From: Anaerolineae bacterium
Lineage (GTDB): Bacteria > Chloroflexota > Anaerolineae > B4-G1 > SLSP01
Reading direction: 5' to 3'
Length of the DNA: 64,000 nucleotides
NCBI GenBank assembly: GCA_034676785.1
Contig: JAXDDP010000034.1
Coordinates: 16,932 to 80,931, forward strand
The notes under the pieces were generated by a model, which was given only the letters and a program-made list of their open reading frames with translations, made no database searches and was not told the DNA's origin. Below, piece by piece: positions 13,901 to 15,468 of the stretch; the stretch's first letter is position 1; every line of letters begins with the position of its first letter. The position numbers and the translations under genes were made by a program.

Positions 13901-15468
13901 ATGGCGAGGGCGCCCCTTACATTACGCCCGACTTCCGTGCAGGGCGCGCTCAGGATCTGAACAGCCTGGGCGGCAAGATTCTGAGGATTGACCCGGATAC
14001 GGGCCTTGGTCTGCCCGACAACCCCTATTACGATGGAGATCCAGCCAGCAACCGCTCACGGGTATGGGCCTCAGGCCTGCGCAATCCTTTCCGCGTTGCG
14101 CTACATCCAACTGAGAACGTTCTGTATGTGGGTGATGTCGGCTGGTATGCGTGGGAGGAGATCAACTACGGGGGTAAGGGAACCAACTTCGGCTGGCCAT
14201 GCTATGAGGGTGGGGCCAGCGGCAACCTACGTCACTCGCTCTACAACACTTTCGCAGGCACCGCCACCTACTGTCAGCCGCTTTACGAGGCGGAGCCCAA
14301 CAGCGGCATCGAGCCGCCGCGCTATGCTTACCAGAACGTTGCAGGTGCTGCAGTCGTCGCGGGCGACTTCTACTCGGGCACCCGCTACCCGTCCCGATAC
14401 CAAGACACGCTCTTCATTGCCGACTATGACAAGCGCTCGATCAGCTATCTGACCGTCAACCAGGATGGCACCGCGATCGCGAGCCCCTTCTTGGAGGAGA
14501 TCTCGGCCCTGGGTGGTCCCGTGGACCTGCGGCTCGGCCCTGACGGATATCTCTACTATGTGGCAATGAACCCCGATCCCGGCGGCGAAAGCGAGATCCG
14601 GCGCATCGTGCACACCAGCGCGCCCGCAGTGGAAGTCAACGCCACACCTCGCTATGGGCTCGAAGTGCCGCTGCAGGTCCAGTTCACCAGCACCCTCTCA
14701 ATCGAGGATCCAGAGGGGCGGCTGAGTTACCACTGGGCCTTCGGCGATGGCGGCACATCGACCGAATCACACCCCCTTCACACTTACACGGCGGCAGGCA
14801 CCTATACGGCGGTGCTGACAGTCACTACGCTGCAGGGACAGTCAAGCGGCGACCGGCTTGCTGTGGTCGTTGGCGACGCCCCACCGATCGTCACCATCGT
14901 CCAACCAAAATCCGGCGACCTCTACACGATTGGCACACCGCTCAGCTTCAGTGGTGGCGCTGTCGATCCCAGAACAGGCCAACCTTTGCCTGCGACGGGC
15001 CTGCGCTGGCATGCACAGTGGTTCTTCAACGAGCATTTGCATTCACCATTCCTCAGCCTCGAGGGCATAGATAGCGGTAGCTTCATCGTTCCCAGCCACA
15101 ACGACAACACAACGATGGTCCTCTGTCTGACCGCAATCGACCACATCCCCGAATTGCTTGACCCGGCAGCATGCGTGGAGATACAACCACGGACCGTGCC
15201 CTATACCTTCCTGACCAAGCCAGCCAGTGGCTTGACCCTGGCATATGAGGGCATCGACTATACCACGCCCTTCACGATTGCTATGATGGTCGGCGCGCGC
15301 CGCAGTATCGGTGCGCCTGCGGAGCAAAATGGGATGCCCTTCGCTTTCTGGTCCAACGGTGGAACAAGAACCCATGAGATCATTGGGCAAACGACGCCCC
15401 AGACACTGACCGCAACATACGGGCACTTTGCATACCTGCCCCTCGTCATCCGGGGCGACAGGCAATGA
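10900..15468 (+). CDS. 1522-aa secreted multidomain protein: N-terminal anchor/signal, Ig-like domain, 11 Asp-box (BNR) repeats, PQQ-type soluble sugar dehydrogenase-like beta-propeller, PKD domain, C-terminal Ig-like region
   Basis: Eleven S/T-x-D-x-G-x-T/S-W boxes (TSDGGANW ... TIDGGTHW). sGDH motifs [54 protein letters not shown] motif WAFGDGGTS...[19 protein letters not shown] overlap with the upstream gene; an alternative GTG at 10930 follows GGGAGGAG. Confidence 0.8.

Follow-up and report, generated by a model that had tools for sequence, protein, structure and literature searches.

Two secreted proteins encoded in a 64,000-nucleotide stretch of an Anaerolineae bacterium genome (GenBank assembly GCA_034676785.1, contig JAXDDP010000034.1, positions 16,932 to 80,931 of the forward strand; this whole stretch is called the window here) end in a short peptide tail, YLPLVIR in carrier 1 and FLPVVVR in carrier 2. 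Both tails are almost certainly YLP-boxes and, as such, a real and selected feature. The tail is not new, since the motif is already curated by NCBI as a putative sorting motif (NF050076, NF053834). The best explanation overall, to which we assign a probability of roughly 55%, is that the tails are YLP-boxes on Sec-exported, unrelated proteins and are recognised in trans on the envelope. The window adds no new principle. What is new from it are two clear members, a variant with tryptophan, evidence for an unstructured tail and for its positional equivalence to known sorting signals, and limits on four candidate partners.

The tails and the YLP-box

Re-reading of both strands placed the two tails exactly where the first-pass annotation had located them. 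In carrier 1, the plus-strand codons TAC CTG CCC CTC GTC ATC CGG encode YLPLVIR (15433-15453) and are followed by GDRQ (15454-15465) and a TGA stop (15466-15468). Carrier 2 is read from the minus strand, on which TTC CTC CCG GTG GTG GTG CGA encode FLPVVVR (4129-4109) with a TAG stop directly after it (4108-4106); the protein ends in RVFLPVVVR and its longer C-terminal stretch is LLIATSRVFLPVVVR. The complete boxes span 15424-15453 (+) in carrier 1 and 4109-4138 (-; SRVFLPVVVR) in carrier 2, and they score 22.5 and 21.8 bits, respectively, with a position-specific scoring matrix (PSSM).

Two NCBIfam models carry the YLP-box name. NF050076 (sort_motif_YLP; 11 positions; any position in the protein) and NF053834 (ultrashort_CTERM; 10 positions; the ultrashort C-terminal form) are both entitled 'YLP-box putative sorting motif-containing protein'. 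The consensus of the box is [RQ]-[VI]-[YFW]-L-P-[LV]-[VI]-x-[RK] plus 0-5 residues. The curated box and the tails of the window are alike in motif, in lineage and in their extreme C-terminal position. As an isolated tail, that of carrier 2 lies above both curated cut-offs (15.2 bits against 15 for NF050076; 13.6 against 10 for NF053834); in the whole-genome scan it scores 14.2 bits. The tail of carrier 1 reaches 13.7 bits against the NF050076 cut-off of 15 and is not reported by NF053834; its core, YLPLVIR, is canonical. Orthologues of carrier 1 have the ending ATYxxRxWLPLxF[RK]xxx, with Trp in the aromatic position, and both models miss this variant. The models serve only as annotation labels and name neither a mechanism nor a partner; a full-text search with peptide strings and 'YLP-box' found no paper on the motif.

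A separate internal peptide, EERRVYLPLVIRAPAEALGAVD, is conserved 125 residues before the end of a protein of 920-980 amino acids (aa) in four small genomes (G034, G142, G046 and G070; loci L143-L145 and L156, family f16). It exceeds the NF050076 cut-off but bears no resemblance to a terminal tag and is likely a false positive of the curated model.

Occurrence in the source genome and in the phylum

The source genome comprises 3.85 Mb in 238 contigs (61.5% G+C; 91% complete, 7% contamination). Among its 21,384 stop-to-stop open reading frames (ORFs) of at least 80 aa, the pattern proposed by the first-pass annotation, [FY]LP[LVI][VI][LVIM][RK], has four matches, two of them in additional proteins outside the pair. 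All four lie at most four residues from the stop, which bears out the anticipated enrichment at C-termini. A looser pattern combined with the PSSM extends the set to at least 17 proteins (326-2430 aa, on 15 contigs) which end in the box plus 0-5 residues. Further copies comprise one located 23 residues before a protein end, two internal ones (contigs C132 and C150) followed by an AYAPPP linker and another domain, and a few weaker ones shortly after signal peptides (contigs C161 and C71).

When applied to ORFs of 300 aa or more, the PSSM gave 20 matches, 17 of which lie within 6 aa of the stop, where 1.5% would be expected; C-terminal copies had served as the seed of the matrix, which makes this enrichment test circular in part. 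Control matrices, reversed or column-shuffled, gave 2-6 matches and none at a C-terminus, and the NCBIfam model, which is independent of the PSSM, recovers the same tails in the genome scan. The shared tail is far beyond chance. Synonymous codons vary among the copies, which places the selection at the level of the peptide; a DNA-level repeat or terminator is ruled out by the same differences.

Within the window, a PSSM scan of the ORFs agrees with the earlier remark that no other protein has such an ending. The sole other match above 11 bits (RTYLPLVLAG, 15.9 bits, 10657-10686, +) falls in a 141-aa ORF that runs out of frame inside the 3′ part of a family 2 glycosyltransferase (GT2) gene, 32 codons before the stop of that ORF, and probably arose by chance.

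Beyond this genome, one genome per species was scanned for 185,579 species with a DNA pattern of VYLPLVxR followed by a stop. At least 120 loci matched. Among the matches listed, about 108 carry Chloroflexota titles and nearly all of these end long ORFs; the titles cover Chloroflexaceae, Roseiflexus, Oscillochloris, Herpetosiphonaceae, Anaerolineae, Caldilineaceae, Ardenticatenaceae, Thermoflexales and Ca. Aquidulcis. Twelve of the matches listed are titled otherwise, and 11 of them lie in ORFs of 8-39 aa or end in Trp instead of a stop. The YLP-box is specific to Chloroflexota. A survey of this phylum found NCBIfam box matches in 71 of 251 genomes, with up to 34 per genome; its zero counts are soft, as the model undercounts the F/V-rich boxes of the source genome (3 matches against about 20 by PSSM).

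One locus (L031, JBIPLF010000020.1, titled as a Rickettsiales metagenome-assembled genome) holds a 232-aa ORF that ends in NNAVYLPLVAR and has a PD40-type neighbour. Its contig is probably a misbinned Chloroflexota fragment.

Cargo, export and conservation

The carriers with a complete 5′ end pass a signal-peptide heuristic in 13 of 14 cases, compared with 17% of long ORFs (Fisher p = 1.4e-9; the calls were made with a simple heuristic of our own, not with SignalP). The tail is enriched among signal-peptide proteins, as the first-pass annotation had foreseen, and it is a lineage-specific tag of such proteins.

The cargo is diverse and covers hydrolases, proteases and adhesins. It includes five S8 subtilases, two M14 carboxypeptidases, two C25 peptidases with DUF11, one C1 peptidase with a lectin domain and DUF11, a PKD protein, a 2430-aa giant with FG-GAP and Ig domains, a β-helix protein, a protein with BNR and glucose/sorbosone-dehydrogenase (GSDH) propellers and several glycosidase-like proteins. 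Outside the tail, 119 of the 136 carrier pairs show no BLAST similarity (E < 1e-3). The tag had been suggested to link the two proteins of the window to one pathway. This suggestion is not supported, for at least 17 mostly unrelated exoproteins share the tag, and it joins the pair no more closely to each other than to the 15 or more remaining carriers.

Conservation was followed in the family of carrier 2, in which the box is kept in 114 of 120 homologues that are 49-76% identical. The aromatic position is Y in 83% of the copies, F in 9% and H in 6%; L is found in 97%, P in 100% and R/K in 87%. As judged from this alignment, the box is under strong purifying selection. No more than three residues follow the R/K in 86% of the copies, while a few have up to 31, which indicates that a free carboxyl end beside the box is not required.

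In the AlphaFold2 model of carrier 2, built from 60 aligned homologues (mean pLDDT 87, pTM 0.88), the last strand ends at residue 917 and residues 918-929 form a coil with a pLDDT of about 46. Conservation of a tail that is predicted not to pack on its own protein is the mark of a linear motif recognised in trans. The tail as the last strand of a common domain is ruled out, both by this low-confidence coil past the last strand and by the unrelated folds of the carriers.

Distant homologues of carrier 1 that share its GSDH and PKD domains differ at the C-terminus. Some end in domains of the type IX secretion system (T9SS), either of type B (TIGR04131, 85.8 bits) or of type A (TIGR04183, 41.5 bits). 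Others bear MYXO-CTERM (TIGR03901, 21.3 bits), a fused sortase, a transmembrane (TM) helix with an Arg tail, or a YLP-box. The YLP-box takes the position at which homologues from other phyla have known sorting signals. In about 20 of the GSDH-PKD homologues, besides P0175, P0201, P0226 and P0154, the tail reads C-G-[IL]-G-P-E-L or C-G-L-L-G-I-E and continues with a TM helix and RRRR. The Cys-containing tails of P0175, P0201 and P0226 had no match to an NCBIfam sorting domain (E ≤ 1); this tripartite tail may be an uncurated relative of MYXO-CTERM.

Comparison with known sorting systems

Chloroflexota are regarded as a single-membraned phylum. This background separates the box from the T9SS, to which it is otherwise similar in two respects: homologues of carrier 1 bear T9SS C-terminal domains (CTDs) at the same place, and the occurrence of C25 peptidases follows that of the box, which they also bear, just as PorU, itself of the C25 family, carries its own CTD. 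A T9SS CTD folds into a domain of 70-100 aa and occurs in two-membrane bacteria, whereas the box of the Chloroflexota is an unstructured stretch of about 8 aa. With a tail of 8-12 unstructured residues and with C25 missing from six box genomes, the system does not belong to the CTD/PorU type.

Recognition of very short tails has a precedent in plants, where the peptide ligases butelase-1 (N-HV) and OaAEP1 (N-GL) use ultrashort C-terminal tags. By analogy only, as these enzymes are eukaryotic and their motifs unrelated, a tail of 3-8 residues without a membrane segment could suffice for a transpeptidase.

Small C-terminal sorting signals have been described by eight attributes (Haft, bioRxiv 10.1101/2023.06.07.544157), and the YLP-box has six of them. 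The first is seen in the 0-5 residues that follow the R/K in 17 carriers, the second in the multiple occurrences per genome and the third in the signature residues (aromatic, L, P and R/K). The sixth, a signal peptide on most carriers, holds for 13 of 14, and the seventh, mutually unrelated carriers, for 119 of 136 pairs. The eighth, homologues elsewhere without the signal or with a different one, is exemplified by the GSDH-PKD homologues. The box lacks the fourth attribute, a hydrophobic segment of TM length, as only 2-3 hydrophobic residues lie between P and R/K. It also lacks the fifth, 2-5 basic residues at the end, since there is usually one R/K, with a second R in some copies, for example LVRR.

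The tripartite signals covered by the same work are LPXTG/sortase, PEP-CTERM/exosortase, PGF-CTERM/archaeosortase, GlyGly-CTERM/rhombosortase and MYXO-CTERM/myxosortase. The YLP-box resembles them in its C-terminal position, its many copies, invariant residues, signal peptides and unrelated cargo, and in the interchange of signals among homologues. It differs in having no TM helix, a single basic residue and only 8-10 residues in all, and in occurring near N-termini too. It is not an LPXTG signal, with neither T-G nor a TM helix. The earlier observation that the tail is too short for a TM helix and matches neither LPXTG, PEP-CTERM nor PGF-CTERM is correct.

The search for a partner

Four candidate partners were considered: sortase, exosortase, C25 and PMT_2. 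An exosortase or archaeosortase was rejected, as PF09721 scores above the cut-off in two of 21 box genomes and is absent from 18 of the 21 and from the source genome. Sortase (PF04203) occurs in 167 of the 251 phylum genomes independently of box status. It is missing from G076, a complete genome in one contig that has boxes and whose C25 protein ends in NLIFLPLIMH, and from G012, G148 and G202. Present regardless of boxes and absent from a complete box genome, sortase is neither specific nor required. In genomes similar in size to that of Herpetosiphon, a conserved gene pair was observed: the gene for a C25 protein of 1020-1110 aa with a terminal YLP-box has, without exception, a sortase gene of 302-322 aa downstream of it at a distance of no more than about 1 kb (G223:C1:5931505-5935631; also G099, G144, G048, G189, G060 and G126).

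The strongest association is with C25 cysteine peptidases (PF01364; gingipain/PorU-like). The family is present in all 14 genomes with at least five box matches and in 22 of the 25 with at least three, compared with seven of 180 without box matches and none of 14 control genomes. An orthologue of 870-1100 aa is conserved in every YLP-rich genome, and the source genome also encodes a C25 protein with a lipobox and without a YLP-box. These data would fit a C25 peptidase as the dedicated enzyme, acting on the box by cleavage or transpeptidation in the manner of a single-membrane PorU. We nevertheless consider this improbable. In box-rich genomes nearly all C25 proteins end in the box, whereas in box-poor genomes they end right after the catalytic domain. 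The C25 proteins thus behave as cargo, and the correlation is what a common cargo family would produce. Both traits also follow the phylogeny, which leaves only about seven independent families. Finally, six box-verified genomes (G121, G020, G219, G049, G203 and G140; 84-99% complete) have no C25 match at E ≤ 0.01, which speaks against C25 as a strictly required partner despite the strong association. C25 stays a candidate by analogy with PorU; a role as required partner is not supported. A little less probable still is the fuller version of this analogy, in which the YLP-box would be the 8-residue substrate tag of a TM-independent surface-sorting system with the box-bearing C25 as its enzyme and PorU counterpart. 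Were C25 to act as the sortase, the box genomes without it would have to hold relict or horizontally acquired carriers.

Several C25 forms stand apart. The third C25 of the source genome (C142:1-2340; L179) has the lipobox LVVLAAC and no YLP-box, and ends just past the catalytic domain; box-less forms of 697-729 aa are also found in G210 and G250. The two C25 genes of the source genome that carry the box lie in duplicated loci (C181:3-6760 and C79:1987-12326), each followed by genes for a YtxH-like small membrane protein, a protein of about 200 aa and a membrane protein of 670-790 aa. In five C25 orthologues (L123, L124, L125, L127 and L129; families f18 and f55, probably Chloroflexaceae and a relative) the box has no aromatic residue and reads EVALPLVQR, RLTLPLVQR, EVMLPLVVR or RVDVPLLQR. 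Other cargo in Chloroflexaceae-titled genomes has VYLPLVxR, and the C25 form may be non-standard or a pseudo-substrate.

The fourth candidate derives from the window itself. A gene for a GT-C glycosyltransferase of the PMT_2 type lies in the operon of carrier 1, and the 3.85-Mb genome holds an unusually large number of such paralogues, 32, including two in the window (7849-9351 and 46203-48560). Since Thr/Pro-rich linkers often precede the boxes, the box might be a recognition tag for these enzymes, which would then glycosylate the linkers beside it. This is very unlikely. Proximity to PMT_2 genes does not exceed chance: 3 of 22 carriers have one within 10 kb, where random placement gives 2.1 +/- 1.4 (P = 0.34), and the neighbourhood link was rejected. 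No GT-C cluster recurs in the at least 120 foreign loci, and many boxes follow directly after a folded domain with no linker.

In the foreign loci, the recurring neighbours are only generic regulators, short-chain dehydrogenases/reductases, ABC ATPases and PD40/TolB-like propellers. The last are the commonest (11 loci among the matches listed); some of them carry the box, and at least one has it after a lipobox-type signal. In the source genome, solely the two paralogous C25 loci share neighbours. The dedicated, co-occurring processing enzyme that had been looked for was found neither in these neighbourhoods nor among the four candidate families.

Recognition, processing or insertion

How the box would work can be outlined as follows. 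After Sec export, a protein partner on the envelope would recognise the box in trans, and this recognition would keep, position or process the exoprotein on the surface of single-membrane filamentous bacteria. It would need neither a free C-terminus nor a membrane-spanning segment. Boxes are also found in linkers after signal peptides and, rarely, between domains, which points to recognition of an internal linear peptide. That the function of the box is sorting or retention through recognition in trans is, in our estimate, as likely as not. The proposal of the first-pass annotation that the tail is a sorting, anchoring or secretion tag can be kept as far as a lineage-specific tag of signal-peptide proteins is concerned, and NCBI curators likewise call the motif a putative sorting motif; its sorting or retention role has only these even odds.

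Several points weigh against recognition in trans for sorting on the envelope. The tail is devoid of a TM helix and an Arg cluster, by which all characterised small C-terminal sorting signals are defined. None of the four candidate partners (sortase, exosortase, C25 and PMT_2) proved both required and specific, and no enzyme recurs beside the box in the at least 120 foreign loci or around the carriers in the source genome. The full-text search found no paper demonstrating localisation, cleavage or attachment of box carriers. Moreover, boxes after signal peptides or lipoboxes and between domains are no less compatible with a processing site than with an anchor.

This last point leads to the most serious alternative, namely that the box is a site of proteolytic processing or release, for maturation or shedding, rather than an anchor. 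A protease would cut at or beside the box; cuts at N-proximal boxes would free domains from a signal anchor or lipid tether, cuts at internal boxes would split modules, and others would trim C-termini. The N-proximal boxes would suit such a role, as they lie 10-70 residues past signal peptides or lipoboxes in Thr/Pro linkers (contigs C161 and C71 of the source genome, locus L081, and genomes G012, G061 and G203). The internal boxes on C132 and C150, upstream of their AYAPPP linker and further domain, would suit it too, and many carriers are themselves proteases. However, in most copies (86% in the family of carrier 2) the chain ends 0-3 residues further on, where a cut removes almost nothing, and yet the box is strongly conserved. 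In addition, no protease family that is both universal and specific was found. We therefore regard a processing site as unlikely, though it ranks ahead of the other alternatives.

The box might also work with no protein partner at all. In this case VYLPLV with its terminal Arg would insert into the outer leaflet or a hydrophobic sheath and act as a weak peripheral anchor. Six hydrophobic residues followed by a basic one, in a tail that is unstructured and exposed in the model, would be compatible with such insertion. The near-invariant L and P and the aromatic preference point instead to specific recognition, the proline in mid-stretch disfavours an amphipathic helix, and the stretch is far too short for a membrane span. 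Insertion without a partner is accordingly judged quite improbable, and recognition of the YLP-box in trans by an envelope partner remains our preferred explanation.

The carriers and their locus

Carrier 1 (1522 aa from ATG; 10900-15468, +) is a secreted protein with an N-terminal export signal at 10900-11043 (+), recognised from sequence and by the signal-peptide heuristic. Pfam matches outline BNR/sortilin-type propellers, a GSDH propeller, a PKD domain and a C-terminal module. Its orthologues (1484-1628 aa, 46-78% identical) have the same architecture.

Carrier 2 (918 aa from ATG at 6862; 4106-6862, -) is a secreted right-handed β-helix protein by its Pfam matches. The ORF (4106-6895, -) is open as far as a TTG at 6895; the database copy, P0003, has 918 aa. 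The N-terminal signal peptide, MVRKFRRILLLLAIAVNSFATDARAYA (6782-6862, -), is called from sequence and by the heuristic and corresponds to a helix of low pLDDT in model residues 1-38. The model resembles GH141/GH120 glycoside hydrolases, with Foldseek matches to 5mqp (E 6e-16) and 3vst, and an Ig-like domain lies C-terminal to the β-helix. The closest named homologues of the carriers come from metagenome-assembled genomes of Anaerolineales, Anaerolineae and Chloroflexota.

Carrier 1 belongs to a tightly packed five-gene operon (7069-16673, +) which encodes, in order, a Dpm1-like GT2, the PMT_2-type GT-C (7849-9351, located between the two carriers), a BcsA-like (cellulose-synthase-like) GT2, carrier 1 and a GH26-like protein. 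The GH141-like carrier 2 is transcribed divergently from it. The arrangement resembles that of a synthase-dependent exopolysaccharide locus equipped with extracellular enzymes of its own. As the carriers flank a glycosyltransferase operon and carrier 2 looks like a glycoside hydrolase, both are probably extracellular enzymes that act on the polysaccharide made there. The two carriers are linked by their position and not by the tag, and the role in polysaccharide metabolism is separate from the question of what the tag does. Directly downstream of carrier 2, two tandem genes encode LysM proteins with M23 peptidase domains (1483-3873, -).

Implications for the Chloroflexota envelope

Large sets of hydrolases are secreted by filamentous Chloroflexota, which abound in activated sludge, hot-spring mats and sediments. 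Among the candidate signals for holding proteins on the envelope of these bacteria, none is more widespread than the YLP-box. As a candidate of this kind it departs from the rule by which a small C-terminal sorting signal requires a membrane helix, and identification of its reader would bring to light a new mode of surface-protein sorting.

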